The translations under genes were made by a program, and so were the position numbers. Positions 7,945 to 27,400 of a DNA stretch of 64,000 nucleotides are shown piece by piece. Position 1 is the stretch's first letter. Each line of letters starts with the position of its first letter. Source of the stretch: Harriotta raleighana (taxonomy: Eukaryota); NCBI GenBank assembly GCA_050575255.1, contig JBNZDD010013665.1, positions 1,496,135-1,560,134 of the forward strand, written 5' to 3'. The notes under the pieces are model-generated. The model made no database searches, was not told the DNA's origin, and worked only from the letters and a program-made list of their open reading frames with translations.

Positions 7945-8320
7945 ACGATCCTAGTCCTCACCTTCAAAGCACTCCATGGCCTTCCCCCAGCCTACCTCTG
8001 CGACCTCCTAACCTACCAACCTGTCGTCTCCCTTCACTCACCAGGCTCCGGCCTGCTCCATGTCCCCGGGCCCACGATCGACAGGTGAGCCTTCAGCCAC
8101 TCTGCCCCCCCCACCTTCGGAATTCCATCCTGCAATCCCTCCACCTTGCCTCCCTTGCCTCCTTCAAGACTCGCCTCAAGACCCTTCTCTTCAACGGTCA
8201 GTCCCCTTCCCCTCCATTTCCTCCACCCTCCCTGATCCCGAGTCTGAAATACTGATTGTCCAGCACCTTAGGACGTTCTCCCAACATGAAAGCCGCTTTC
8301 AAATGTAATTTTGTTGTTTG
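7945..8320 (+). mobile_element. L2-derived 3' end repeat with (TTG)n tail
   Basis: Ends in GAAAGCCGCTTTCAAATGTAATTTTGTTGTT; same family as 22740-22975, 40690-41027 and 59640-59880. Confidence 0.65.
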
Positions 8321-8487
8321 TATAATCGGTGTTCAGTTTATCTGCCCCACTTCCTGTGACAAGCCCCCAACATTCCTAGGCCACACCTTCCTCACTGGCA
8401 ATGCTTCAACTCTTGACAATTTGGCTGATCGTTAACTCTCTAGACATGGGGGCTGTTATTTGGATGTAGTGTTGGGTGAGGGTCGAG

Positions 8488-11400
8488 ATGTCAAAGTCTT
8501 ATTGGCTTCAGAAGATGGGTGGACAGGACGAGGACACGGAGCACATTTGTAAACATAAAATTGCCATGTACTCGATGGACGATGGTGATTTCGAATTGCT
8601 AGACTCGGGCTTCCTGTCTATGGGAGAGGATTTCAACATCTCTCCACAGAATAGAGTTATCCACTGTTTGCAGCAACTGCAAGAGTTTCAGGGTAAGTCT
8701 CTGCTGAGTTCAACTTTTTGCTTGTAACTAACTAGGAGCAGGGTGTGGGGACTGGGTGACCAGGTTTGGTTTACAGTGAAATGCAAGGTTTATATAAAAT
8801 ATTTCTCATTGATTGTTTTTATTCAGAGAAGAAATGAAGTGAACGGTCGCTGCTTCCGTTTTGGATTCTGTCCAAAAGCCCCCAGATTTCCCAGCCACTT
8901 GCTAACCTGACACAACAGTCACCACACCACAGCTCTGACACTCAGGCTCTGACACTCTGACTGCGGGGTGGGTGCATTCCTCTTCTGTCTTATTAACACA
9001 AGGCAACCAATTCTGGTCACATCTTAAACCTCTGTAGAACAAACTACTGGGATCTTTCCTGACTCCAAAGATAAAAGTAAACACCTTATTAATTCATTAT
9101 GGGCTTTGACACGTCCAGAAGATGTGAGAAGCTTAATAACAAATACAAGGATTATTATTAAGTTCATCATTATCAGCAGCTGACACTAAAAGGTGTCAAC
9201 AGCATTAAAGCAATGTCATCAAGTGTCAGGAAGAGAGAGGTGTAAGTTTCAACTCCTGAGACCAGAGTACAGATAAAGTTAAACGAAGAATAGCAGAAGA
9301 AAGAGCTGCACAAAGCTCTCCCTCTCTCCCTACCTCCCTCCTTCGAGAAAACAACAACAATATAATTACACTTGCATAGCGCCTTTCACATTAGGAGGAT
9401 GTCCCAAGACTGGACAGTCATTGTTTCAGATCCGAGGGGTCAGAGACAGGGAGGGTGGACAGAAAGGGGGGAATTTTGGGTGGCCGGTGGGACCATTGAA
9501 CAGGGGTGTCTTGAGGGGAGACTTGAAGGAGTTCAGGAACTGAGGGATGGAGTTCCAGACATTGAGATCAGACTGGCTGAAAGCTCGCTCACCAATGGTG
9601 GTTCAGGGGATGTGGAGCAGGCAGGATCCTGCTGAGTGGAGGTGGCTGGCAGGATAGTAGGGGGTTAGGAGATCGCAGAGGTAGGGTGGGGCGAGGCTAT
9701 AGAGAGCTTTGAATGTGAGTACAAGGACCTTGAATTGGATCCTCTGGGTGATGGTGAGCCAATGGAGTTGGGCGAAGATGGGGGGGATGGTCACGAAGCT
9801 TGGAGCATGGGCCGCAGAGTTCTGAATTATCTGCAAACTATGGAGGGAGGAATTGGGAAGGCCGACAAGCAAGGCATTGGAGCCGGAATGTGATGAAGAC
9901 ATGAATGAGGGTTTCAGCAGCCTGGGGGTGAGGTAATGGCAGAGACAGGCAATATTGCAGAGGTGAGGGAAGGCAGAGTGAGTCATTGCTTGGATGCAGG
10001 GGAGGAAAGACATTTGAGAATCGAACAAGACACCTAGATTCCTGACTGGCTTGGTGAGCTGGAGGTTGATGCTGGTAGAGCCTGATGTGTGAAGGCTCTG
10101 GATCGAGCCAACCAGGAGGGCCTCGGTCTTGTTGACATTCAACTGTAGAAAGTTAGCTCACATCCATGACTTGATGTCTGACTGGCAGTCTGTCAGGACA
10201 GCAGTGGTCCTGGAGTCCAGGGTAGAGTTGGGTGTCATGCACATACATGTGGAAGTTAACCCCATGTCTGTGGATGATGTCACCAAGTGAGAGCAGGTAG
10301 ATGTTAAAATGTAGGGGGCCAAGGACAGTGTCCTGGGGGTTGCCACAGCTGACAGTGCGTGGGCTGGAAGAGAAGCCTTTGGTGGCAACAATGAGAAAGG
10401 TAACAGTTGAACCAAGCGAGGGCAGGTCCGCAGAGTTTGAGCTGGGAGGAGAGATGGTATAGGAGGATGGAGTGGTTGACAGTGTTGAAGGCAGCAGATA
10501 TGTTGAGGAGGACAAGGAGGCAGAGAGTGACCTGATCACAGATGTTTAGAATGTTATTAGAGACTTTTACCAGGGCTGTCTCTGTACTATGGGCAGCATA
10601 GAAGCCAGATTGCAGAGGATCGAGGAGGGAGTGGCGAGAGAGAAAGGAGCAAAGTTGGGAAGCAACGATTCATTCCAGGGCCTTGGAGAGGAATGGGAAG
10701 TTGGAAATGGGGGGTAGCTGCAGAGTAGGGGTGGGTCCAGTGAATGTTTTTTCAATATAGGAGGGATGGCAGCAGTTTTTAGAGGAGTGGGAACAGTCCA
10801 GTGGATAGGAAGAGGTTGATGACATCAGTTAGGAAGGGGGCTAGGAGATGGAGCTGGAAGATGAGGAGAGATAATAATAATAATAATAATAATAATCCTT
10901 GCATTTGATATAGCGCTTTTCACATCTTATCAACGTCCCAAAGCGCTTCACAGAATGTATTGTAAAGTGAATTGACTGTATATTTGTGGGAAGAACGCGG
11001 CAGCCAATTGCGCACAGCAGTGTCCCACAAACAGTCGTGGATTGAAATGACCAAATTTTATTATTGTGGTTTTTTGGAGGGATTATTATTAGGCAAGTGG
11101 AGTAAGGAAACTTGCCCAAGGTTTCGCCCTGATCTGCCTGGATTCGAACACAGGTCTCATGCTTGTAAGGCATGTAAGGCGAGTGCTCTAACCACTGAGC
11201 CACAGGAGCTCCAGGAGATGGGGATGTGGTCAAGGAAGCAGGTGGTGGGTTTCATTTTTTGGATGAGAGCAGAGAGGGTTGGGAGAGAGATAGAGTCAAA
11301 GGTGTGTAGTGGGGGTTGAGAGTGGGGTGGATCCTGGGGGAGAGGTTATGGGACGGTAGTGATGGACGGGGTAGAGGTGGCTGAACATATCCCCTCGATT

Positions 11401-14400
11401 TTTGATTCAAGGAAGTCCAGTATCTCCTTGCAGTTGAAGTTGAAGGATAGGATGGGTAAGATGTGGGAGGAAACGGTTTGTGGTGGAGAAGAGGAGCCTG
11501 GGGTTATCCTTGGCCTCTAAGATTAATTTGGAGTAATAGGAGGACTTGATGGGGGCAAGGGCGGAGCAATAGGCTTTAGTGTGATCCAGCCAAATCTGCC
11601 GATGGACGATTAGTTTGGATTTGGTCCAGCTGCGTTCGGCAGCTCACAATTGTGCCTTGAAGGTTCAGAGTCATTTAGATGACTCAAGGGCAGCAAAGAG
11701 GGAGGGGGGAGAATTTTTTTCTGTGGGCAATAGGTGATGGTAGAGGATTGAGTAGTGGGAAAGGGGAATAGAGTCGTTGAGGGAGATGGTGATATCTTGT
11801 CGGTTATGGTGATTTCAAAGCAGTGAGGGCAAGTCAAGCGGGTGGCCATGGATGTGGGTGGTGGAGTGGATGTGGAGGAATAGATTAACGGACGTGAGGA
11901 GGGAGGAGAAGTCACTGGAGCTAGAGCAGGAAGAGGTGAAGTGGAGGTTTAAGATAAGCAGTCTTTCAGAGCAAAGGAGGGGAAAACAGGAGGGGGGGGA
12001 GATGTCCGAGAGGAAGGTGGAGGAGGGCTTGGGGGGGATGATAGACAAGGAGAATTTTGAGGGGGAGACTGGAGGGTTGGTAGAGAGTAAGGTTTTCAAA
12101 GAAAGGGGAGGTTCCAGAGGAGTAAGGGGAAAGGCCAAGGATTGGGAGATTGGGAGTCAAACCACCATCACGACAGAGGGTTGGGCCGTGGGTTTTGGTG
12201 AAAGCCGTTAAGTGTGACCTCGATCAGAGGGAAAGTGTCACCTGGGGTAACCCAGGTTTCTGTCAAGGTGAGGATGTCGATGTTTTCATGGATGATGAGG
12301 TTGTGGATGGTGAGTGTCTTGTGAGACAGGGAGCGGACATTTTGCAGACCGATGTGGAGGAGACCGTTGGTGGTGGAGAATTGTGCAAGATGAGGAGGAG
12401 GGTTGACAGTGAGGGTGGGGATATGGATGAGGAAGGAGAGGTTGGCCACCAGGGAAAGGGACCGATGGATCTTGTGGCGAGAGTGGGGGATATGGCAATC
12501 AGGGTGGGTGCTGTCAGGCAGCCGGTGGATCATCCAAACACATCAGAATAAGAATAATAAATAATAATATTTGTTTTTGATATAGCCCTTCATCATGCCA
12601 TTGAGTCATTTCAAAGCAATTTGCAGAATATATTGTAAAGTGGATTGATTGTATTTTGTGGGCACAAACAGTCATGGATTGATTGATCCAATTTTTTTGG
12701 AAGAGGGAATATTCCTGGAAAGTAATAATCCCACTGTCTTCAATTGAATGGAGATAAATTCACAACAAATCTGTAGAAACATTACTTCCAGGGAGCGAGT
12801 AGTAAACCTATGGAACAGGCTCCTTAAGGAGGTGGTGGAAGCAGAAAGTGTTGATGTTTTCAAGAACAAATTAGATAGTCTTCTGTTAGGAAATAATCTT
12901 GGAAGACAATATATAGTTTGGGACAAGACATATCAAGTGATTGCCGGGATGAAGGAAGGCAAAATAGAGTGGATGGATCTTTTGCCAAGAAAATTCTTAT
13001 TTTCTTTTGAAACGTTAAGGTTTTTTTGTGTTTTATGTCTTTGTGGAGGTGACATTGGGCCATTACTACAGCAGCTGAAGCCGGAGCTGAAGTTGGGAGC
13101 CTCTCTCTGCACCAGTTCCGGGTGTGTAACAAACAAAGAGTGGTTGCAGGAGTTGGAAGATCTATGTACGCTTGGAGGCAAGATCCACATGGAGGTTTCA
13201 AAAGCTCTGATGCGTGTGAGCAATGAATATTTATCCAGCATTAGCCTGGAAAGTTTCCAGAACATTTATTCGGATTTACTGCAACAAGATCAAAATATAG
13301 GTACAATATTATTTTCACATCCTTGTGTGTGTGGGGCGGGGGGGGGGNGGGAGCGGACATTTTGCAGACCGATGTGGAGGAGACCGTTGGTGGTGGAGAA
13401 TTGTGCAAGATGAGGAGGAGGGTTGACAGTGAGGGTGGGGATATGGATGAGGAAGGAGAGGTTGGCCACCAGGGAAAGGGACCGATGGATCTTGTGGCGA
13501 GAGTGGGGGATATGGCAATCAGGGTGGGTGCTGTCAGGCAGCCGGTGGATCATCCAAACACATCAGAATAAGAATAATAAATAATAATATTTGTTTTTGA
13601 TATAGCCCTTCATCATGCCATTGAGTCATTTCAAAGCAATTTGCAGAATATATTGTAAAGTGGATTGATTGTATTTTGTGGGCACAAACAGTCATGGATT
13701 GATTGATCCAATTTTTTTGGAAGAGGGAATATTCCTGGAAAGTAATAATCCCACTGTCTTCAATTGAATGGAGATAAATTCACAACAAATCTGTAGAAAC
13801 ATTACTTCCAGGGAGCGAGTAGTAAACCTATGGAACAGGCTCCTTAAGGAGGTGGTGGAAGCAGAAAGTGTTGATGTTTTCAAGAACAAATTAGATAGTC
13901 TTCTGTTAGGAAATAATCTTGGAAGACAATATATAGTTTGGGACAAGACATATCAAGTGATTGCCGGGATGAAGGAAGGCAAAATAGAGTGGATGGATCT
14001 TTTGCCAAGAAAATTCTTATTTTCTTTTGAAACGTTAAGGTTTTTTTGTGTTTTATGTCTTTGTGGAGGTGACATTGGGCCATTACTACAGCAGCTGAAG
14101 CCGGAGCTGAAGTTGGGAGCCTCTCTCTGCACCAGTTCCGGGTGTGTAACAAACAAAGAGTGGTTGCAGGAGTTGGAAGATCTATGTACGCTTGGAGGCA
14201 AGATCCACATGGAGGTTTCAAAAGCTCTGATGCGTGTGAGCAATGAATATTTATCCAGCATTAGCCTGGAAAGTTTCCAGAACATTTATTCGGATTTACT
14301 GCAACAAGATCAAAATATAGGTACAATATTATTTTCACATCCTTGTGTGTGTGGGGCGGGGGGGGGGTGAGAGTGAGGTGCGGGTGTCGTTGCAGGAGAG

Positions 14401-17400
14401 AGGCAGGCATGGACTCCATTTGGGATCTTAGATTAGGAATCGCCAATGCCAGCAAATCCCTAAGAGTATGATTGCACTAATGTTTCCTTTCCATCAGGTA
14501 AACTGTTACAGACATCTGTCGAAAGAGCTGGAAGTTTGGATGTCAATATGTTGGACCTGCATCTCTTTGCTTCCTTGATCGCTTGTTGCCCCAAATTCCC
14601 TGAAGGCATGAGGGATCTCGTGAAGCGCTGGATCACAGAGAAGAAAGGAGACTTTTACTGGGAGCTGTTTCAGATGCTACAGGAGGAATGGTTCTGCTCG
14701 ATTCCGGAGGACGAAGTGCAGTGGTGTAGACGGGAGCTGCTGCATGCACTCCTTGTGTCTCTGAAGCGACCTCACCAGAGATACCTAACCTTTCATCATC
14801 TCCATGGACATGAAATCTTCCTGCCCGTAACTCTGGGTAACTCCACGCTCGTCTTCTCAATGCGCTTCAAGCTTTTCGCTGGCCAGTGATTTAACTTGTT
14901 TCATTCTCTTTAGGCTTCAGATGGGCCAAGACGGTTAATAATGCTAACATGCTACTCCAAGAGCATGCCTTTATCACGGTGAGTTAACTTTCTCGCTCCA
15001 GGTGCTTCTGGAGGTGAATCCTTGTGTTTGATGTGGATTTGTTTTCTAACTATCTCCCGGTTTATCTGGAGAATTGTTGACCGTGAGGAATATGAGGAAC
15101 AGATTTCTTGGTTTGACATCTCGTCTGAAAGACAACACGTCTGACAATGCAGCATTCCCTTTTAATCCTTAAAGTGTCTGCTTGGACATGAGGTTAAGTC
15201 CTCAGACACCTTGAACCCACAACCTTCTTTGAAAGAACCATCCAACTCGTCCCACTCCCCAGTTCTTACCCCGTAGTCCTGCAAATGTTTTCTTATTAGG
15301 TCCCTATCCAATTCTCTTTGGAAACCTACAATCGAATCTGCTTCTACAACCCTTTGAAGGCAGTGCATTCCAGACCATAGAATCATTCAAGTGTGTCTTT
15401 CTGTGAAGAATGTGACAGGGAGGGGAGAGGTTTGAGATCCTAGCTCCTGCTCACTGCCAGACACCTAGAAACTCACAATATTTATTTATCTTTGCTTCTT
15501 CTGCAGGAGCGATACCATATGAAGTCATTTTCAAAGATGGCAGCTCAGAAGACAGACATGGTGATGTGGTATGGTCCTGTGGCAGCCAACGCCTTCCTCA
15601 CACTCTGCTCGGCCCGAGGCTTTCCACACATCAGCCGGCAGCTGAGGAGCAGCTATCCTGACACCATAGCTCTACACCAAACTGCGAGTGAGTGTGTGCA
15701 TTTTGCAAGTGTGTTCAACAGCAGCATTGATACAGCACCCATCACACCAGGAGAGTCCCATTGCGCTCAAGAATAACGGACTACAGAGCCGAGGGGCAGG
15801 GGAGAGGTGACCATCGTCACGGTCAAATAGCATAGTCTTCAGGCGCGATCTGAAGATAAGGAAGGAAGGGGCAAGGACAGAGGAAGAGTGTGCGAAAGTG
15901 CGACCACCGTGAGAGCAAGCGAGGATGAGAAAACGTGAGAAGTTGGTGTCAGAAAATGTGTAAGTGTGAGACAAGTGTAAGTGATTCACTGTAAACTATT
16001 TTTCACCTTTGTGTAGTGACTGTGCTGGATCCTGACTCAGACAACCTTCCCCACATCCCACGACACGCAAAGCACCCTCTGAAATCAATTCATCGGAATC
16101 ACGAAGGTTTCAAAACCTGTTCCCTCGCTGAGCCCTGGCTGTTCCGATTGTCAGGGGCTCTATCCAACGAGTGGACAACAGTGGCCAGAGACCTTGATTT
16201 CAGTGATCAAGACATTGAGGAGACAGCAAGGAATTCCTGGTACAACCATCAGCAACGAATGTTCCATCTTCTGAAGAGAATGATTGAGGTTCGCTGTGTG
16301 ACATTCACAGAGTTATGCCTCCTCCTGCTTTCCAAAGGCCAAGAATACAAGTGCTATCCACAGCTAAACCTGGTGGTGGGGGCAGCATTGGCTGTTGGTA
16401 TGTAATTCTATACATATATATATATATACAGTATTTTAATAATCATCCTTGCATTTGATATAGTGCCTCTGCACGTCTCCCAAGCCCTCAAAGGACTTCA
16501 CAGAATATACTGTAAATATACTGTACTGTACAGCAACCAGTTGCACACAGAGACATCCTATAAACAGTTGAGGATTGAGTGGCCACATTTTTCCAAGGGA
16601 TTATTACCCCCTGGAATAGCAATCCTCTAATAATACTTTTATTTGATTAAAACGTCTCTAACATTTAAATATGTCTGATAGTGCATGCCGTGTAATCGTT
16701 GTCAAGTATAGATACCGTGCATTTTGTAGACAAAAGTTGCAGTCAATTTGCACACAACCAACATCCCACAGATGATCAATCAATTTTTGGGGTGATTGTT
16801 GGTCAGGACACTCGCTAGTGTCTTCTTTCAGATGTGGTTTCAAACATGGGCATAATCCGAGTGATTGATGAGAAGCAAGGCTGTAAGCGGCAGCGTACGT
16901 CCAAGCAGCAAGACGGGTGAGTGATCTGGAGCTACCGGCTCAGTTACTGTTTATACAAACAGCGATTTGTAAATGTAGCAAAGCCTAGAATCAACTGAAA
17001 CTCTGTAGGATCCTGATCAGGATAAATGGACTGTACCATTTTACAAGAAACATTTTCACACAAACAGTAGTGGAAACCTAGGACTCCCTCCCTCCCCTAA
17101 ATAGCTGTGGATGCTGGAACTATTACAATTTTCAAGACTGGAAAATGTAGGTAATTGTGAGCAGGCGTGATCTAATAGAAAGACAAACCAGGCTTGAGGG
17201 GCTGAATTGCTATTTCTGTTCCCATGTTCCTAAACAGAAACAAGATGTCCAGTTGGAATAGGACAGCCAACTTGTCTTAACAACATTGGGAAAGTCTTTT
17301 ATAAAAAAGTATTCAGTATTTTTTAACAAAAAATAAAAGTATCTCCCTCCAATGTAGTTTGTGCTGGAGGACAGTTCCATGTGCATTAATCGTGTCAAAT

Positions 17401-20400
17401 GGGCAATGGCTTTGGTTCGTCGCTATGGTTGGGTAAGTGTGTGGCATTGTGTTTTTCAATGTGTTCCTGCTCTGATGATAGGCATCAACCAGTAGTCACA
17501 CTGGTCCATGGCAACCTTGGTCTCATTTGTGATTATTGTAACAAATCATTGAATGTTAGCGAGATAAAGGTGGAGGAGATGGATCATTTCTTGGGCCAGA
17601 TGTCACTGGCGGGACCAGCCTTTAGCCTAGAAACAGATGCTCCTGGGACATACATGCTGCTGTTTCTTCCCAAATACCCCTCATCTTCAGGTGAGCATCA
17701 CAGACACTGACCCTCAAGTTAAACCATTTAACGTAACATTTGTCTCCGTTTAATAAAAGTATCTGATAAAAGATGATGGAAGGAACTGGTTTGCTCTTAA
17801 TGCCAGCGTCTCATTTTGAAAGTGTGGTAGTAATTAAATGGTTTTATATATGTTTAACAAAGAGAATGTAATGTCAGATGTCACACTATTCCTCTGGTGG
17901 AGTCCTGTAGCTCAGTGGTTAGAGCACTCACCTGACAAGTGTGAGATCTGTGTTCTGAATCCAGGCAGGTCAAGGCGAAACATTGGGCAAGTTTCCTTAC
18001 TCCACACGCCTAATAATAATTACTCAAAAAAGCCACATTAATAAAATTGGTCATTTCAATCCACGACTGTATGTGGGACCCTGATGTGCCCAATCGGCTG
18101 CCGCATTTCGCTCACAATTATAGTCAATTCACTTTACAATATATTCTGTGAAGCGCTTTCAGACATTGATAAGATGTGAAAAAAGTGCCTAATCAAATTC
18201 AAGGATTATTATTATTATTGTGTATACTGCTAGAGTCTGCTACAGGGTGTCTGAGTGGCCAGAATGACTCCAATGTAGCGTTGGACATTCAGCCCCGATC
18301 CTGGGCTAACTTTGCTCCCGGATTTGTACATTTCTGAGTGTTCTCTCGTACATGTTGTAAACAAATGTTTCCAGCATCATACAAGGATGGATGAGTTTAT
18401 AAATCTCTCATCTATAATACTGATAATAATCCTTGTATTGTATTTGATATAGCTGCTTTATCAGGTGGTTGACTTGTCTCAAAGCACTTCATAATTCACT
18501 ATTGTATTTTGCGGGCGAAACGCAGCAGCCAGTTGCGCCCAGCAGTGTCCCACATACAGCCATGGATTGGGTGACCACATCTGTATTGCTCTGAAAGTTT
18601 ATTACCCTCAGAAAGCAGTAAACAGAGGTGCATGATGTACAAAAACTTAAAATTGAGTGTTTTCCCCACCAGGGAATTGAACCCTAATCTTCTCACTTGT
18701 GAGGGGATTTCACTGCATTAACATTAGGGGAAGGCACACTGTAAGTTGGTCTTTTGACAAAGAGTGGGAAGGAATAGCCCACTGCAGCTAGAGAGACTTT
18801 GATCCAGGACTCTTTCCGTTGGGTGTTAATTTAAGGGCTTTACTCTTACAGGAAGCTGCATCACCCCTTCTACCATCAAAGACAATCTGGAGCTTTTCTT
18901 CCGGGAGGAATATCTGAATCTAAAAAATTCTTTATTGGAGAAGCTGCAGAAAGTGTTCGATAATGAAGAGTGGGAGGTACGGATTTCATTTTGATTAGTG
19001 CCCCCGTTCCAGCACTTGGTGCAGCTAAAATCAGTTACTGGACATGCATACCACATCTATTTGTGTAGGCTGGGCAAGAGTTTGAGGGTAAAAACTACCA
19101 ATCCAGTGTCTCCTGTTTTGATTGTGAAATTGAAATCAAATGGATTAGGATCTTTGGGACAGGAGGAGGCTATTCAGGTAACCAAGCCTTATTGAATCAC
19201 GTCAGAACTTTCAATACTATTTCTTTGGCTTCATCACCACTCTCAATATTCACCTGGCAAAGGACAACTCACTCCTGATGAAACTTATTGAATCACGTCA
19301 GAACTTTCAATACTATTTCTTTGGCTTCATCACCACTCTCAATATTCACCTGGCAAAGGACAACTCACTCCTGATGAAAGCCTCGCTGGTGACTGAGGTC
19401 TGCTCTGTGCCAGACTTTTTTTCCCTAATACTTTCAATATCCCATCAATTGTTGGAAACGACGATGTGAATCCAGAGTGTTAATGTCGTCCACAGCGTGT
19501 GTGCAGTTGCCTGGAGCTGAATGATACTAGTGCTGTTGTTGACCTAACTCTGTCCAAAGGAGGGCAAGCGTTGGAGTTGTTGTGGGATTTTGTGAAGGAG
19601 ACTGGAGCCCTGATCAGGGACTGGCCTCAACTGCATTGCAATGGACTTCACAGCAGCACAGGTATTTCACTCTCAACCGTAACTCACCTGAGAATTCATT
19701 CACCTGATATTTTCCCCACTTTTTGACTTCTGATTGACCGAGATGTTATTCCTCCCTCCCCAGTTCAAATCGCACACACTGTAGATGGGAATGTCGAGTT
19801 GTTCCTGCCGTTCGCTGACACTAAGTCTCATGTCTGGGTTCTTCTGGACTCCTGTTCCTTGGTCATGTTGGTCAAGCGTTTGACCAATTGGAATATATGT
19901 GAGGCTTACTGTCTGCTCTACAAGCCCGTGGGCCGGGATTACATTCAAAACAAAATGGTTATGTTTTTTTATCTGATCCGAAAAAAAGATGGCGTGATTG
20001 AGGTACCTCTATTCATCTTCTGCTACCTTTAGACTAGATTCTGTGTATAAACTAAAACCCTGGTTAACTGGACTGATGAGGAGGGGATGGTGGGAGGAGA
20101 TCTGGCCCCACGAGTCAGAATTTCTGGTATCAGCAATGTAATTGTTTGAATCCTATGAGGAGATAGATAATAATAATCCTTGCATTTGATATAGTTTTAG
20201 CACCTTGTTGAGAACATCTTGAAGCACTTCACAGAATATATGGAGTTCTGTAGCTCAGTATTTAAAGCATTCACCTTACAAGCGAGAGACCTGGATTTAA
20301 TTCCTGGCATGGCAAAACCTTAGGCAAGTTTCCTTACTCCACACGCCTAATAATAATCCCTTTTTAAAAAGATTGATAATTTCAATCCACAACTGTTTGT

Positions 20401-23400
20401 GTTGACAACAAAAGTCAATTCACTTTCCAGTATATTCTCTGAAGTGCATTGAGATATCTGGAGGACCTGAAAAGCGCTATCGCAAATGCCAGGACTATTA
20501 TTATTAATATTATTATATTGTAAAGTGGATTGACTGTATTTCAAGGGAGAAATCTAGCAGGCAACAACAAAATTAAACTTGTATAAACCAATTGCACACA
20601 ATATTGTCCCACAAACATTCATGGATAGAGTGACCAAATTATTTTTGGTGGGAGCGGGATTATTTATTACCTCTAGAAAGCAATCTGCCAATCGACTAAC
20701 TGGGTTCCAATGTATTGCTAGGTAAACAAATGTGTGTGTAGTATGGAAACTTGCCAAAAGTTTTGCCCTACTTGGGAATCAAACCTGGGTTCTCCCACTT
20801 GTTTTTTTTAAAGCCCCACCATCTTCCCTCCATCCAAGAATAAGATCTCTTCTGCTTGTGGGATTCAAACTGAATTAAAGTTGATTTCCCTGGCCACTGA
20901 AGGCCAGCGAGGGTGTGTGTTAGGACAGTGAGCCAGTGGGAGACCAGACATGTGCCTGTGGATGGATGTTTCTGTTTCTGGCCAGTCCCCCTGGGCAAGT
21001 TTATTACTCAAATTTGATAATTACAGCAATTTATTACACATTGAAGCACTGTGTATTGTATTCTTTACGGCATGGATTACTTGGATTCTGTTCCATCCAT
21101 CCCCAGAAATTGAACAAACAGCACAAAGGTCATGAGCAAGTGTTCAAAGAAAATGTCTGTGTGGCCAGAAACATGTTCTACAAACTTTGTGTTGATTCTC
21201 AGATAAAAACGAACTTCATCTCTATTATACCACAGGTAAATTATTGATGTTATGTACTGAATGGATGACACTGAGTCTGTACATTGCTGTTACATATTGA
21301 ATTCTCTCGATCTTTACTCCCTCACTCCCTCACCCCCAACCCCGAAAAAGGACAAAGGCTTTCTCACAGTCCAGGGTTCTCAGTGAAGATTGCGGAGGAA
21401 TAAACCTATCAACAGCAAATTGGATAGCCCCAATGGAGTCCCTTCAGGCAGGGATTTGAGTGAGACAAACTCACCAAACCACTATTAAGCGCTCTGGAGA
21501 GACTCTATCCTCCTTGGAGGATACTATTTAAGTGCAAGTTGTTGTTGTTTAATAAATTCTGTTACTAGGAACTGAAGTTCAATACGGAGATGATGTTTAC
21601 ACTGTACCTGAAGCAGTCACAGTTCACTGCCTGGCCCATTCAGCTCCAACTGGTTCAAAACAATGATGGTCAGTCTGTGTTCAACAAGGTCCTCACTGAG
21701 ACGATGCTTCAGCATGAAAAGAAAGGTATTCCTGTCTATCATCCTCTATTCAGTGCTCCCAACAATCCCATCCCTACTTTAGAACTATATTTGTATCTAT
21801 TAGCTGTCACTTATGGTTGGATTTCATTACGGAGGGGAGAAATATAACAGGAGTAGGCCACTCAGCCCCTCAGGCCTGTTCCGCCATTATATATGACATC
21901 ATGGCTAATCTGTGCCTCAACTCCAAAATTGAGAAATGAACAGGTACCATTCCAGGCCAATTGGCAGCTGCACAGAAGGATTTCTTCAGGTCAGTGTCTT
22001 TCAGAGACTGATTCAAAAGAGCAACAGACTAATTTCCCAAGCCCTTTTTATTTCCTGTAGATTATATCTTGGTCGAAGTCCACGGGGAGCAGCACTGTGT
22101 CCTGACAATCCATCGTGAAATCACTTATGAGCAATTTCGCACTGGACTGGATTTGACATTCCCAGAGAAAAACCTTGCTGTGTATTATAAAGAAAAAGGT
22201 GATCTCAGAACCTCCCACCTCTCTCACCCCCCGATCTCAAAGCCTCCCACACCATCCACCCCCTGATCTTGCAGCATCCCACCTCTCGATCTTGCAGCCT
22301 CCCACCCCTACCACCCCCAATTGTTGAGTGGCTCTCAGTGTACCAGTCACTGCATTTTTTGACCTACATGTTTCGTGCTGCTCATTTACAAATAAACATT
22401 CGTCATATTTTGGCAGGTCCTCCTGTGTGTATCAACCAGCAAAACAGTATTGACTACATCCTCGGGGAGATACCTCAGGGTAATATTGTTCTCAAGGCTG
22501 AAGGTGATGTGATTTCAGTATTGATCAACTCTTTTCTGTATAATGCGTTGATTACAAAGTTCTGAGACTCTCTTGTTTGTGACAAGATAATTGGGGTCTC
22601 GTTGTAGGCAACAGAATGCGTAGTCCAGTTCCTGAGCCATATGGGTCCACATTATTCCCGGGCACTACTGATGACCACAGTCAGCTTGGCTCATTGGCAG
22701 GATCTCAAAGGGCAAACCAGTCACTGACGGCAGGTAATCACACCTCTCAGCTCCTTCAGCCACATTGCCCCCAACCTCTGGAACTCCATCCCGGAGTCCC
22801 TCCACCTTGCACACTCCCTGGCCTTCTTCAAGTCTCGCCTCAAGACTCTCCTCTTTGATGAACCCATCGGCAACTCCTTATTCCCCACCTTCCCTCCCCT
22901 GCCCTGTCCTCAGCTCGTGTCTGAAGCAGTACCGAACATGAAAGGCGCTATACAAGTGTAATTTTGTTGTTGGTGGTAGTTGTTAACCCTGAAAGCCAAA
23001 TCCCTAATGGGTTCAAAGATATGATAACGTACTATATCAAATGCAATGATTATTATATTCTCATTTACCTACGAATCAGTCATTATGCTTGGCAATACAT
23101 ACTGTGAAGCATTTTGAGATATTTTCACACAAGTGCTGTGAAAATTTGGAGTCTTGTAGCTCAGTGGTTAGAGCACTCGCCTTGCAAGTGAAAGACGGTT
23201 CGATTCCAGGCAGAGTGAATCCTTGGCAAATTTCCTTTCTCGACACGCCTGATAATAATCCCTCGATAAAACACGATAAATAGTGGGTTATTTCAATCCA
23301 CGACTGTTTTTGGGACACTGATGTGTGCAATTAGCTGCCGTGTTTCTCCCACAAATATAGTCAATTCACTTTACAGCATATTCTGTGAAGCATTTTTAGA

Positions 23401-23900
23401 GATGTCTAGGAAGACGTGAAAAGTGCTATAGCAAATGCAAGGATTATTAAGAATTCAACTTTCCCACAACGAGTGAAGCCAGCCATAGCTATGGGCACAT
23501 TTTATAGTCGTTTGCTTCCACAGATGTGAGACAGCTGATTGCAAAGCCAGGCAGACACTTCCTGCAGAGAAACAAGGCAACCCTGATCTCCAGAATCACT
23601 GAGATCAGAAGTTTGATCGAAGAGCTGCAAGACCAGGAAATCCTCAATCCGGTAGAGTACGAGATGCTGATCAGTGTCAGCCCCCTGACACACCAAGTCC
23701 GAGAGACCCTGAACTGTGTGATTAAAAAAGGGAATCAGGCAATGGATATTTTTCACAGCCTGCTTGAGAAGCACCAGCCATACCTGCTTAAAGAAATAGA
23801 GAGCGCAGAGCTATCACATTCGAATTATGATCCAGGACAGAGTTCGAACCCACAGCTTTTACAATGTGGTGGACACAAAAGCAATGATATTATGTTGTAA
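8488..23900 (+). CDS. Uncharacterised multi-death-fold FIIND protein (PYD-like, DD, FIIND with CARD-like insert, PB1-like, CARD; CARD8/NLRP1-related), about 1061 aa. Exons: 8488-8692, 14069-14320 (duplicate 13049-13300), 14498-14826, 15507-15687, 16017-16397, 16832-16916, 17482-17690, 18852-18976, 19496-19661, 19764-20002, 21107-21235, 21569-21725, 22061-22198, 22417-22503, 22608-22733, 23524-23900
   Basis: All 15 introns are GT-AG and the phases chain without a stop (3186 nt total). The C-terminal CARD, FIIND motifs and death domain are recognisable by eye. AATAAA at 24055. Exon 1 and the exon 2 acceptor (GAG) are the least certain parts. Confidence 0.8.
9345..12545 (-). mobile_element. Degenerate long L2-clade LINE (APE endonuclease plus RT remnants)
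   Basis: Endonuclease N-terminus LQNVRSL...IDILTLTETW (12168-12533); RT motifs GNPQDTVLGPLHFNIY and HMYVHDTQLY (10153-10539); LNVNKTEALL, FKVLVLTFKAL; (TTG)n tail near 9350. Many frameshifts. Confidence 0.88.
10872..11212 (-). mobile_element. tRNA-derived SINE inserted into the L2 element
   Basis: Reverse-complement head GGAGCTCCTGTGGCTCAGTGGTTAGAGCACTCGCC, B box GTTCGAATCC, long (TTA)n tail at 10872-10896. Confidence 0.85.
12329..14368. repeat. Apparently identical 1020-bp tandem duplication (probable assembly artefact)
   Basis: 12329-13347 and 13349-14368 look identical, with a single N at the junction (13348) after a G run. Confidence 0.85.
15225..15385 (-). mobile_element. CR1 LINE 3' fragment
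   Basis: Minus-strand LWSGMHCLQRVVEADSIVGFQRELD resembles the CR1 ORF2 C-terminus; similar fragments at 12790-12890 and 34000-34140. Confidence 0.65.
16017..16397 (+). CDS. Death-domain-encoding exon of the novel gene
   Basis: WLFRLSGALSNEWTTVARDLDFSDQDIEETARNSWYNHQQRMFHLLKRMIEVRCVTFTELCLLL fits the death domain pattern (W..LAR.L.FS..DI...Q...LL..W....T...L...L); phase 1-1 exon. Confidence 0.8.
17482..21725 (+). CDS. FIIND (ZU5-UPA) region of the novel gene, interrupted by a CARD-like cassette
   Basis: MSLAGPAFSLETDAPGTYMLLFLPKY resembles NLRP1 [62 protein letters not shown] resembles [45 protein letters not shown] resembles FHLYLI, and ISIIPQ|ELKF resembles LEILPK|ELEL. Confidence 0.75.
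17899..18220 (+). mobile_element. tRNA-derived SINE
   Basis: GGAGTCCTGTAGCTCAGTGGTTAGAGCACTC head, family body, (TTA)n tail. Confidence 0.85.
19188..19379. repeat. 96-bp tandem duplication (2 copies)
   Basis: CTTATTGAATCACGTCAGAAC...CACTCCTGATGAAA occurs at 19188 and 19284. Confidence 0.85.
20242..20505 (+). mobile_element. tRNA-derived SINE (with flanking reverse-orientation SINE pieces to about 20800)
   Basis: GGAGTTCTGTAGCTCAGT head, family body and TTA tail. Confidence 0.75.
22061..22503 (+). CDS. PB1-like (beta-grasp) domain exons of the novel gene
   Basis: DYILVEVHGEQHCVLTIHREITYEQFRTGLDLTFPEKNLAVYYKEKGPPVCINQQNSIDYILGEIPQGNIVLKAE has PB1-like beta-beta-alpha-beta-beta-alpha-beta patterning. 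Confidence 0.55.
23148..23449 (+). mobile_element. tRNA-derived SINE
   Basis: GGAGTCTTGTAGCTCAGTGGTTAGAGCACTCGCC, GGTTCGATTCC B box, family tail. Confidence 0.85.
23524..23900 (+). CDS. Terminal exon encoding an ASC/NLRP1/CARD8-type CARD
   Basis: HFLQRNKATLISRITEIRSLIEELQDQEILNPVEYEMLISVSPLTHQVRETLNCVIKKGNQAMDIFHSLLEKHQPYLLKEIE matches the CARD consensus (HF..R...LI.R......L..L....L..E.Y...KG..A...F...L....PYL..EL). Confidence 0.9.
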
Positions 23901-24189
23901 CACCTCTACACTTTCTACGTCCCCTCATCCCAACCCTCAGCTCGAGTCCAAATCCCTGACTGTCCAGCACTTGGGACGACCTCCCAACATGAAAGATGCT
24001 ACACAATGTAATTTGTGGTTGTTAGAATATATATTTTTTTTTACGCAGACAGGGAATAAAAATTCTTGGGTCTGAAATCTGGTCTTTTCTTGCCGTTGTT
24101 GATCTTTGCCTCTGGGTTTAATGATTGGGGTATTTACACAGCTCCCATTCATGACAATGGTTGTGGACACTGACTCAGATTTGGAGAGC

Positions 24190-24495
24190 TGGGAATCCTG
24201 TAGCTCTGAATCCTGTAGCACAGTGGTTGGAGAGCATTCGTCTTACAAGCGAGAGTTGGGTTTGATTCCAGGGAGGGCGAAACCTTGGGCAAGTTTCCTT
24301 ATTCCACAATAAGAATTCCTCAAGAAAAAAAAAGGGTCACTTCAATCCACTACATGTTTGTGGGACACTGTGTGAATCGCTGCCTTGTTTCGCCCACAAT
24401 TACAGTCAATTCACTTTACAGTGTACTCTGTGAAGCACTTTGAGACGTCTAGAAGACGTAAAAAGCGCAATTTCAAATGCAAGGATTATTATTAT
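24190..24495 (+). mobile_element. tRNA-derived SINE
   Basis: Same head, body and tail as the other copies, with a small head duplication. Confidence 0.8.
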
Positions 24496-27400
24496 AGTTG
24501 GGACAAAAGGACAAGTGATTACTGAATCTGGAATGCTGGTCACACATTCTGCGTTTCCCTGTTGAGTCAGGCTGAGGTGGTTCTTTGAAATGGTTGAAAA
24601 TACTGACTTTGAAACAACTAATGCCCTGTATTAATTTATTTATTGCTGTGGTTACATGACTGTATGAGTGAACAGAGGCATCTGATTTCTAGGAAGCAGT
24701 TGCAGAAGGCACTTTATATAGAACACCCGAAGCAACAAACTACACCAAACAGAATTGGTGAATAAATAATCATATTGTGACGTTAAAGTAAAGGTTTCAC
24801 CGACACTCTCTTCCTCCCTTCCCGAACAGTCACCTTCACGGAATAAATCTAACGCACTTTCCACTGCAAGATGCAGGCCTGCCTCACCACCAGCTAAACC
24901 AGCTCAGGTCAGACAGGTGCCGGGAGATGTCCTGAAAAGCTTCTGAACATTTCAGAGCCACAAGCAGATCTGCAGTTCCGGGGTTCATGGTACCAGCCTC
25001 TGCCATCAGCTTCCTCTTTGCCTACTTTACTGGCACGGAATGACTTTGCATGGTGAGTTTAAGAAACGTTATTCAGATAATAAATGATAGCGTCTCTAAA
25101 CCTGTTAAAACATCGGTGAGTAAGAAGCGTTGATTTATTACCTGCACTTTGTCCTGATCACTCTCACTCTCAGCTCCATCCTTGCCGACACCAACTGGGT
25201 GGCAGATAGACACTCCCTTCTCTGACAGGGTGAAGCAGTCATTTAGTTGCAGAACAGGGTGATGGTGCCTGTACTATTGTAGCCTGAGTCAGGAAAGGAA
25301 CTACATTAAGATACATTAAGGTTATTAGATTGAGGCAGAACATAGCTTTGCACCTTCTAAATGAAGATCCTGTAGTCTAGTCACTGTCCTGCCGATTCAC
25401 TTGGTGCAATACTGCTCTCTCTGCAGCTTCCCTCTCTGGCACTGATCAGCCTCATGTCCGGCGGTCAGAAACTCCAGTCAAACACTGAGCATTTACCACT
25501 GCTCCCGGCACACAAAACCAGAAGGCCTCATATCAGGTAGCTGGTGAGCAACAGACCCCAACCCACCGCAGGCACCGCTGGGAAGGGCTGGGCAGACTCC
25601 AGCAATGCTAACAGGCTGGGAGACTAGGCGTTGAGTTTCAGCGGTTCCGTACCTTTCCCTTGAGAGCGAGGGCTTGGAGACTGGGAGCTGTTCGCTTTCT
25701 CTGGATCAGGTTTGATTGGATTCAGTGCACACAGACCGGTCTGGAAAAGCCACTTAGCGCCTTGGACGCCGCAGTGGCCCTGGTCACACTGCATCACATT
25801 GAGAAGCAGACGGAGGGACGGAGAGGGGGAATGAGGGAGGGAGGGATTGGGAGCGGGAGGGAGGGGTAAGGATAGGAGCAGAGAGAAGAAGACAAGAGAA
25901 TAAGAAGTTAGTAACATGTGAACAGAGTGGATCAGAGAGCAGCAAGAAACGAGGCTCAGAGTGCACTCAGGGTTTTACTCTGTTACAAATTGGCTTTCCT
26001 CTTGCTAACCACCACTGAAATAAAGCAGAAGGGTCGGGATGATTGGGATCTAATTGAGGCTTCAAAATTCTGAAAGGTTTGAAAGGTTTTGAGGATAAAT
26101 AATGAAGATTATTTCCATGAGTGGGAGAATCTGTTAGCAGCAGGTACAAGGCCCGGATTACTGGAGGGTTAAAGGGTTAGAAGAAACTTTTAAAAGCAGA
26201 GAGTTATTGCAACACAGAATGCCTTGCTCTAGACGGCTGTTGAGACTGAGAACACAACCAATTTTAAAGGTAAATTGGATACGAAATTGAAGAGAAACTG
26301 TATGAAGATGTCTTGGTAAACCACAGGGATTGGGATCAGAGAAGGGAAGGAGCCCAGGTTTGATGGGCCAAATGGCGTCACCTTGTGCTGAAATGTCTGG
26401 CGAGGTCAACGTACAGTATGGAAAGAGAATGGGATAATGACAGGGCAACTTACAGGCAATGTAAGGACGCACGATAGACAGACTCCACAGCACCTCACAC
26501 ACAGTGACCAGCAGAGAGGGACTCAGGCTCACAGCTACCGCTAGGTTGGACAATCCATCCTCTACCATCAGCAACAGCATCACAGTGTGCAACGTTCTGG
26601 GATGAATTACAGACCGGCTGTTGAACAATGACAGTAATAGCCATTCCTGCTCCATACTTTACACCTGTCAGTTGGATAGCCAAGGGAGCTGTGCTACCAA
26701 CACCCAATAAATACTCCCTTTGCCTCAAAAGAACAGGCCGGGCCCATAGCAAACTACCTCTGACAACTGATGGCTGTGAGCTCTGCAGTCTCAATTATAG
26801 CGTGGAGCAGAGAGAAATGTGAGAGGAGACAAAACTAAACTTTTCACCTGAAGAAAATGTGAGAGGAGAACCATAGGCTGAGATCGGGACAGGGGATTAT
26901 AATGAGAAGTCTACCTCCCCTCATTATAATGGGGCAAAATTAATACCACAATTTTGGAGTCTAAGCAATAGCTTTCCTGCCTGGGACATTTGGCTCCAGA
27001 AAAAGTTGTTTACATAATGTCGCAGCATTCACACCACTGTACAGCGACCAACACCCAAACCACTCACACTGTACAGGAGTATCTGTCTCTGTGTCTGTCT
27101 TTCAACATCTCAAGTTCTCGGTCACAAGTTAGAAATGGAAACTCCATGATAGGAGTGAATTGTGAGGAGCAACAGTGTAAAGTACAGGCAGAGGGCCGCG
27201 GAACTGCCTGACAGAAGTCTCATACCCAATGTCGTGCCACCCACATGCAATGCTGTGGCTAATGGAGATGGTGCCCTGGGGCAGAGCCTTACCCGCTATA
27301 AACTCTGACAAAGAAGTTCAATCTGCACCTCTACCTCCATCACGCTGAACATGAAACTGCAAACGCCTCACAAATTTCCTAGGAAAACAAACACTAAGCA

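Follow-up and report, generated by a model that had tools for sequence, protein, structure and literature searches.

NLRP1 and CARD8, the closest described systems, share a ZU5-UPA-CARD core, in which the oligomeric UPA surrounds the CARD filament via a flexible linker of 17–25 residues and lowers the threshold, as described in the available part of PMC7794386. Cleavage of CARD8 requires Ser297, is severely impaired by F296H, depends crucially on His252 and His270, and is modulated by Glu279 (PMC3210808, available text), and F1212A of NLRP1 is listed as cleavage-deficient in the accessible portion of PMC7483925. In PIDD and UNC5, ZU5-UPA is likewise joined to death-fold domains (PMC3210808, available text). 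PB1 pairing has been described for p67phox, whose Lys355 and Lys382 are set against four OPCA acids of p40phox (D289, E291, D293, D302); mutation of Lys355 abolishes p40phox binding, and NOXA1 of mammals, whose retained PB1 is devoid of both lysines, fails to bind p40phox (PMC2121648, in the part available).

The window (the whole stretch of 64,000 nucleotides of Harriotta raleighana that was analysed, to which all coordinates refer unless otherwise stated) contains a gene for which a 17-exon model (8488–23900, + strand) was open over 1086 residues with all introns canonical. Its domain order is a helical N-terminus, a death domain, a ZU5 split by an insert, UPA, a PB1-like domain, a linker, and a CARD. 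The core, the exon phases of the genome's conventional FIIND-CARD genes, the Ser nucleophile, and the His-270 equivalent are common to this gene and NLRP1/CARD8, and its CARD profile ranks NLRP1, ASC, and CARD8 first in the PDB. In contrast to NLRP1 and CARD8, 117 residues with a folded domain lie between UPA and CARD instead of a 17–25-residue linker, ZU5 carries an insert, P1 is not Phe, and a death domain and helical N-terminus take the place of NACHT-LRR or a disordered region. Unlike PIDD and UNC5, the protein has its death domain before ZU5, a C-terminal CARD, and no HF/S motif.

Homologues were searched for with HMMER, using the FIIND exon as query against 1.84 billion representatives, which gave five matches, four of them real; the fifth (P0005) was dropped as a repeat protein. 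Queried with individual exons (PB1 exon 1, N-terminal, CARD), a protein word index limited to longer proteins gave no match. The match clusters comprised uncharacterized proteins of Scyliorhinus torazame, S. canicula, Carcharodon carcharias, Cetorhinus maximus, and Mustelus asterias, and a Callorhinchus milii homologue is labelled ASC in the database, the names of family entries being either uncharacterized or ASC-like. Aligned to the model, the homologues cover it from the N-terminal region through the CARD (entries of Callorhinchus and S. canicula are shorter at the N-terminus), and this alignment along the full model confirms the exon chain. All homologue entries were produced by computational gene prediction; where an entry comes with several isoforms, some support by transcripts is probable. 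In a tree of ZU5b-UPA, the seven family members grouped in a single clade, apart from the six ordinary FIIND sequences of the genome (100/99). This clade holds at least two shark lineages, and the window protein, nearest to the catsharks by identity (44–45% vs. 29–30%), has a long branch that the tree does not resolve. The family is a previously undescribed FIIND-CARD variant of cartilaginous fish whose PB1 is conserved, though degenerate. The gene is not described in the covered literature on FIIND with PB1, shark, elephant shark, or cartilaginous fish, which was judged partly by title or the start of the abstract and lay outside supplements and most subscription papers; sharks are not mentioned in the available part of PMC11760013.

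Pfam was applied to 13 single exons and matched the terminal CARD exon (23524–23900, +; CARD, E 9.1e-11), the death domain exon (16017–16397, +, phases 1-1; Death, E 0.0028, below the cut-off; 52/86 residues identical to catshark P0001), and the exon with the end of ZU5 and the start of UPA (19764–20002, +; FIIND, E 0.0062). NACHT and LRR were found neither in the scanned exons of the gene nor in the full-length homologues; this absence and the ZU5 insert were not part of the original prediction. The linker exon 16832–16916 and the first ZU5 half 17482–17690 (together 16832–17690, +) were placed by alignment to the other FIIND genes of the genome, with which the first ZU5 exon shares the phase-1 intron, and the UPA exons 21107–21235 and 21569–21725 (21107–21725, +) have the same phases as those of the FIIND paralogues. 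Upstream, the first coding exon (8488–8692, +; start codon uncertain) is open, has a strong donor, and weakly matches the catshark N-terminus. It is followed by two 1-1 exons, the first of the N-terminal helical region (14069–14320, +; 33/76 identical to P0001) and the second at 14498–14836 (+; 42/98 identical to P0001), and by the exons 14914–14978 and 15507–15687 (14914–15687, +; phases 1-0-1). As a whole, 14069–15687 encodes about 270 residues that are mostly helical and 35–43% identical in sharks. Pfam gave no convincing family for exon 14069–14320, and neither Pfam nor the Atlas gave one for exon 14498–14836; the Atlas search with the N-terminal exon returned unnamed bacterial clusters at low recognition, and the single-sequence AF2 model of this exon (pLDDT 49) was too poor to use. 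Exons 14914–15687 are at best faintly death-fold-like (CARD HMM: 4.6 bits, 2/3000 shuffles, and 3.6 bits, 12/3000 shuffles, in a second run; HHalign probability 10%). Assignment of the N-terminal region as DED or PYD was tested and gained no support.

The gene looks single-copy in the genome, and a genome search with a second-lineage shark protein returned only this locus and one unrelated CARD match. Its neighbours are genes that we take to be GPN2 on one side and ZDHHC18/PIGV/ARID1A on the other; the interval between the GPN2-like and the ZDHHC18-like gene presumably corresponds to the SFN site in human. A direct duplication of 1025 bases (12329–14373, 99.8%) around a single N copies one exon (copy at about 13049–13300, near-identical to 14069–14320) and is probably an assembly overlap. 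A perfect 96-base tandem repeat is located at 19188–19379.

The PB1-like domain is encoded by two exons (22061–22198, +, 138 nt; 22417–22503, +, 87 nt) that are both phase 1-1 with GT-AG borders, comprise 75 codons in total, and sit in the UPA-CARD intron, i.e., between the end of the UPA exon at 21725 and the start of the CARD exon at 23524. The original prediction of two phase 1-1 exons for a segment of about 75 aa was accurate in coordinates and sequence, including the motifs it had quoted. With a small splice matrix (derived from 21 donor and 19 acceptor sites in other genes of the same genome), the four PB1 splice sites ranked in the 98th–99th percentile of all GT/AG within 8000–24500. 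The domain is contiguous, in the same place, and complete in database proteins of five shark species, with 39/75 and 41/75 identical residues in two catsharks and 25–27/71 in three other sharks. About 43 of its residues are missing from the elephant-shark model P0003, and it is absent only from a Mustelus isoform that is also without CARD. Crude scans of six paralogue intervals revealed no PB1-like exon separating UPA from CARD. Identity to the catshark amounts to 52% for the PB1-like domain (39/75), 58% for the CARD (49/84), 42% for ZU5b/UPA (73/174), and 26% for the linker (10/39, against P0001); at the sequence level, the PB1-like domain is maintained by selection and the linker is not. The linker exon (22608–22733, +, 126 nt, 42 codons, phase 1-1) is flexible and skippable, and catshark isoform model P0008 lacks, relative to P0007, exactly 42 residues at the linker, which is the size of this exon. 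The low-complexity linker exon that had been predicted is thus present, but its poorly conserved sequence is Ser/Gly/Pro-rich and not strictly of low complexity.

A PB1-like fold, as first proposed for this segment, is favoured by sequence profiles and by the intron pattern, although its scores all remained under the Pfam cut-off (first member 14.4 bits vs. 23.6 for PF00564). Pfam PB1 was the family match in 4/5 shark domains (4/7 rows of the alignment; best E 0.0024), Pfam searches with the single PB1-like exons gave no match, and the locus was not among the 12 matches of a PF00564 search of the genome. As a reference set, nine PB1 domains were reconstructed from the same genome; their gene labels (TFG-, aPKC-, p62-type, etc.) are our presumed assignments, apart from the oxidase-type domain, which matches the p67phox chain 1OEY (E 0.029). 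The window domain scored 9.5 bits on the HMM of the genome's own PB1 domains (1/5000 shuffles) and reached z 4.9–6.1 in pairwise comparisons with the oxidase-type PB1 (6.1 in one test). When the homologue profile was aligned to the nine domains, HHalign gave a probability of 81% (E 1.3e-5); individually, the p67phox/NOXA1-type PB1 scored 17.3 bits and the TFG-type PB1 9.8 bits (0/1000 shuffles each), six of the nine PB1s were at ≤30/1000 shuffles, and the three PARD6-type PB1s scored at chance level.

Another beta-grasp domain (CIDE-N, TDP-43-N, or ubiquitin-like) or an unfolded segment appears very improbable, since, of seven sequences of the CIDE-N, TDP-43-N, and ubiquitin-like types, not one scored above chance on the homologue profile, compared to six of nine PB1s at ≤30/1000 shuffles, and the introns match those of PB1 genes. 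For such a fold speak Atlas entries for TDP-43-N, GRHL1-C, and CIDE-N at 0.80–0.83, a DFF/CIDE half-domain favoured in one of four pairwise settings (z 4.2), and a PDB profile search that returned no PB1 structure and a sole match to N-myc-interactor (E 1.1). The top three Atlas clusters for the window domain were PB1 (0.89, 0.85, 0.84), which serve as leads only. No informative match came from searching PDB sequences exon by exon, the single-sequence AF2 model of PB1 exon 1 alone (pLDDT 55) was too poor to use, and a prediction of the two PB1 exon peptides as separate chains of a complex scored 0.02, which speaks neither for nor against the fold. Judged from the profiles, the domain resembles PB1 more than the other beta-grasp families compared, and a PB1-derived beta-grasp fold is predicted with high confidence.

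A phase-1 intron placed within the beta3-beta4 loop and a second exon of phases 1-1 are common to the window gene and the TFG-, aPKC-, and p62-type genes, whose second PB1 exons measure 84, 90, and 96 nt, respectively, compared to 87 nt in the window gene; a beta2-alpha1 motif is also TFG-like. In contrast, the intron of the oxidase-gene PB1 is in phase 2 before the beta3 Tyr and thus differs from the window intron in position and phase. As PB1 donor, the sequence favours the p67phox/NOXA1 type, and the position of the intron favours TFG or aPKC. Phase-1 exon shuffling may have put a PB1 of the p67phox/NOXA1 or TFG type into the UPA-CARD intron of a FIIND-CARD gene.

Pairing faces were examined by mapping the Lys355 and Lys382 columns of p67phox via 1OEY. 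The Lys355 column holds Glu in the window (Glu850, 22075–22077), Thr/Met in the catsharks, Arg in three sharks, and Asn in the elephant-shark model, so that Lys occurs in 0/7 and the conserved basic residue in strand 1 expected among orthologs is not seen (Arg in 3/7). The Lys382 column reads T,T,T,M,M,H, with Thr in the window and the catsharks and Lys in 0/6. The D-x-D/E-G-D motif of OPCA was found in 0/6 full domains; its absence from the window domain had been noted from the start and is confirmed. Lysines occupy the OPCA loop of the window copy, in a register that is uncertain by one residue. Conserved in 6/6 full domains are a beta2 Cys, Ile-His, Phe-Pro, and a beta3 Lys. The lack of an OPCA motif is a feature shared with the top-scoring PB1 of p67phox (NCF2)/NOXA1, from which the window domain differs by being without Lys355 and Lys382; from the TFG/aPKC PB1 it differs by being without the acidic OPCA cluster and the beta1 Lys. 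By its residues at these positions, the window copy is neither a type I nor a type II PB1.

These columns bear on a working type II PB1 that would bind p40phox, p62, aPKC, or MEK5 and couple the CARD fragment to signalling through oxidase, autophagy, or kinase pathways. We consider this improbable, although the nearest PB1 is of the p67phox/NOXA1 type and the three sharks of the second lineage combine Arg in the Lys355 column with more basic residues in the beta1-beta2 hairpin. A possible basic face is kept in the white-shark lineage only. At the two lysine positions, the window has Glu and Thr and the catsharks have Thr/Met and Thr, and p40phox binding is lost on mutation of Lys355 (PMC2121648, available part). 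The coupling to p62, aPKC/MEKK, or NADPH-oxidase proteins via PB1 pairing that had been suggested for the active fragment finds no support in the window copy, in which the beta1 Lys and the OPCA acids are absent. Slightly less probable again is head-to-tail self-polymerisation through a charge-swapped or otherwise non-canonical surface that would be orthogonal to other PB1 proteins. It would fit the acid at the basic beta1 position, the lysines in the OPCA loop, and the residues kept in all full domains, but the Glu swap is confined to the window copy and the loop register carries the uncertainty given above.

With the charged pairing residues lost in the window copy, the domain more likely serves as a structural or clustering unit than as a connection to proteins of autophagy or the oxidase. 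Our preferred reading, to which we assign a probability of about 0.5 by analogy with NLRP1 and CARD8, is that the conserved, likely PB1 domain without both pairing faces would act as a rigid extension of UPA that helps to cluster a flexibly tethered CARD of the NLRP1/CARD8 type, and not by docking onto PB1 proteins. The PB1-like domain adjoins UPA without a spacer, this junction is conserved, and the variable, skippable linker lies between PB1 and CARD. Since PB1 abuts UPA and a linker is placed only before the CARD, UPA and PB1 would form one collar around the CARD filament, as UPA alone does in NLRP1 and CARD8. The CARD tethered behind this clustering unit would recruit ASC or caspase-1, which are the likely targets because the family CARD profile ranks NLRP1, ASC, and CARD8 first. 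Such a UPA-PB1-CARD unit could either be freed by self-cleavage or signal within an uncut scaffold.

The ZU5 preceding the cleavage site is interrupted by two exons (18852–18976 and 19496–19661; 18852–19661, +; phases 1-0-1) of about 97 residues, which occupy its conserved phase-1 intron. Normal skipping of these exons was rejected, as every homologue model, from the sharks and from the elephant shark, includes them. The insert is helical and weakly CARD-like (CARD HMM: 9.2 bits, 1/3000 shuffles, and 7.9 bits, 2/3000 shuffles, in a second run), with an HHalign probability of only 13%, and is split at phase 0 like the genome's CARDs that we assume to be of caspase-9 and Apaf-1 type. It is possibly more unusual than the PB1 itself.

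FIIND scores of the family were below the cut-off, with the Pfam E of 0.0062 here, values down to 1.3e-4 in the homologues, 12.5–16.8 bits on the paralogue HMM, and UPA-FIIND matches at E 0.026–0.064 in two homologues. The spacing from His674 (19775–19777) to P1 in the Ser-Cys/Ser site (19850–19858) is 26, as for H270/F296 of CARD8. Both cleavage-site serines are invariant (7/7), and the P1 column reads C,H,H,C,C,C,L, i.e., Phe in 0/7, with S-C/S in the window. The His270 equivalent is kept at the same spacing in five of the seven; it is Gln in the catsharks, which also have His at P1. At the His252 position, Lys, Ser, or Thr was read from the alignment in all sequences, and Glu279 is absent from the family sequences. 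If cleaved, the fragment would start at Ser701 and comprise 386 residues, and in 6/7 sequences the N-terminus created by the cut would read Ser-Pro. The released UPA-PB1-CARD fragment of the original prediction is therefore uncertain: both serines and His674 are in place, but the Phe of the SF/S site is missing from all seven sequences. From these residues, the odds are somewhat against self-cleavage of the window copy and further against it in the catsharks, of which P0001 and P0009 are likely natural non-cleaving FIINDs. Two in-frame acceptors 21 bases apart (19743 and 19764) are available for the cleavage-site exon; the homologue models mostly fit 19764, and three catshark isoform models extend this exon by 28 residues.

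An uncleaved scaffold with several death folds in the manner of PIDD/UNC5, in which death domain, insert, and CARD would bridge partners and the PB1 would be a spacer or a site for a non-PB1 ligand, is unlikely but deserves consideration. It overlaps with the clustering reading and differs from it on cleavage and on the role of PB1. The 97-residue insert splitting ZU5, a P1 that is never Phe, the combination of His at P1 and Gln at His-270 in the catsharks, and the Lys/Ser/Thr at the His-252 position are in its favour, given the severe effect of F296H and the crucial role of His-252 and His-270 in CARD8 (PMC3210808, available text); against it stand the invariant serines, the His-270 equivalent at unchanged spacing in most sequences, the Ser-Pro N-terminus, and a CARD of the NLRP1/CARD8/ASC type. 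Somewhat more doubtful is a distinct inflammasome scaffold of cartilaginous fish with a rebuilt FIIND, in which a death-fold insert splits ZU5, cleavage is weakened or lost by lineage, and the captured PB1 would add a non-canonical polymerising or partner surface driving the CARD filament, while the Arg face of one shark lineage might still dock p40phox- or p62-type partners.

The family, which is kept in sharks and the elephant shark, amounts to a natural experiment: its UPA-CARD linker contains a folded domain, its ZU5 carries an insert, and its cleavage motif is lost by degrees. With it, it can be tested whether a FIIND must cleave to signal and what the UPA-CARD interval tolerates. It also offers an example of a PB1 fold that is conserved in the absence of both pairing faces.

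Among the other FIIND genes of the genome, one is also without the P1 Phe and another is without both Phe and His, so decay of the cleavage site is not unique to this gene. At least six FIIND(-CARD) copies are clustered on G000:C13602 at about 96,000–157,000 (L027–L033). Two of these copies are preceded, at distances of about 3 and 6 kb, by ubiquitin-family exons (Pfam E 5.6e-9 for a single one, 8e-27 for a tandem pair), of which the tandem exon has a phase-1 donor at its end; ubiquitin-like-FIIND-CARD sensors are possible there. On G000:C13729 (about 12,208,000–12,215,200; L036–L037), a FIIND gene with Leu at P1 is followed by a death-domain-like exon, without CARD.
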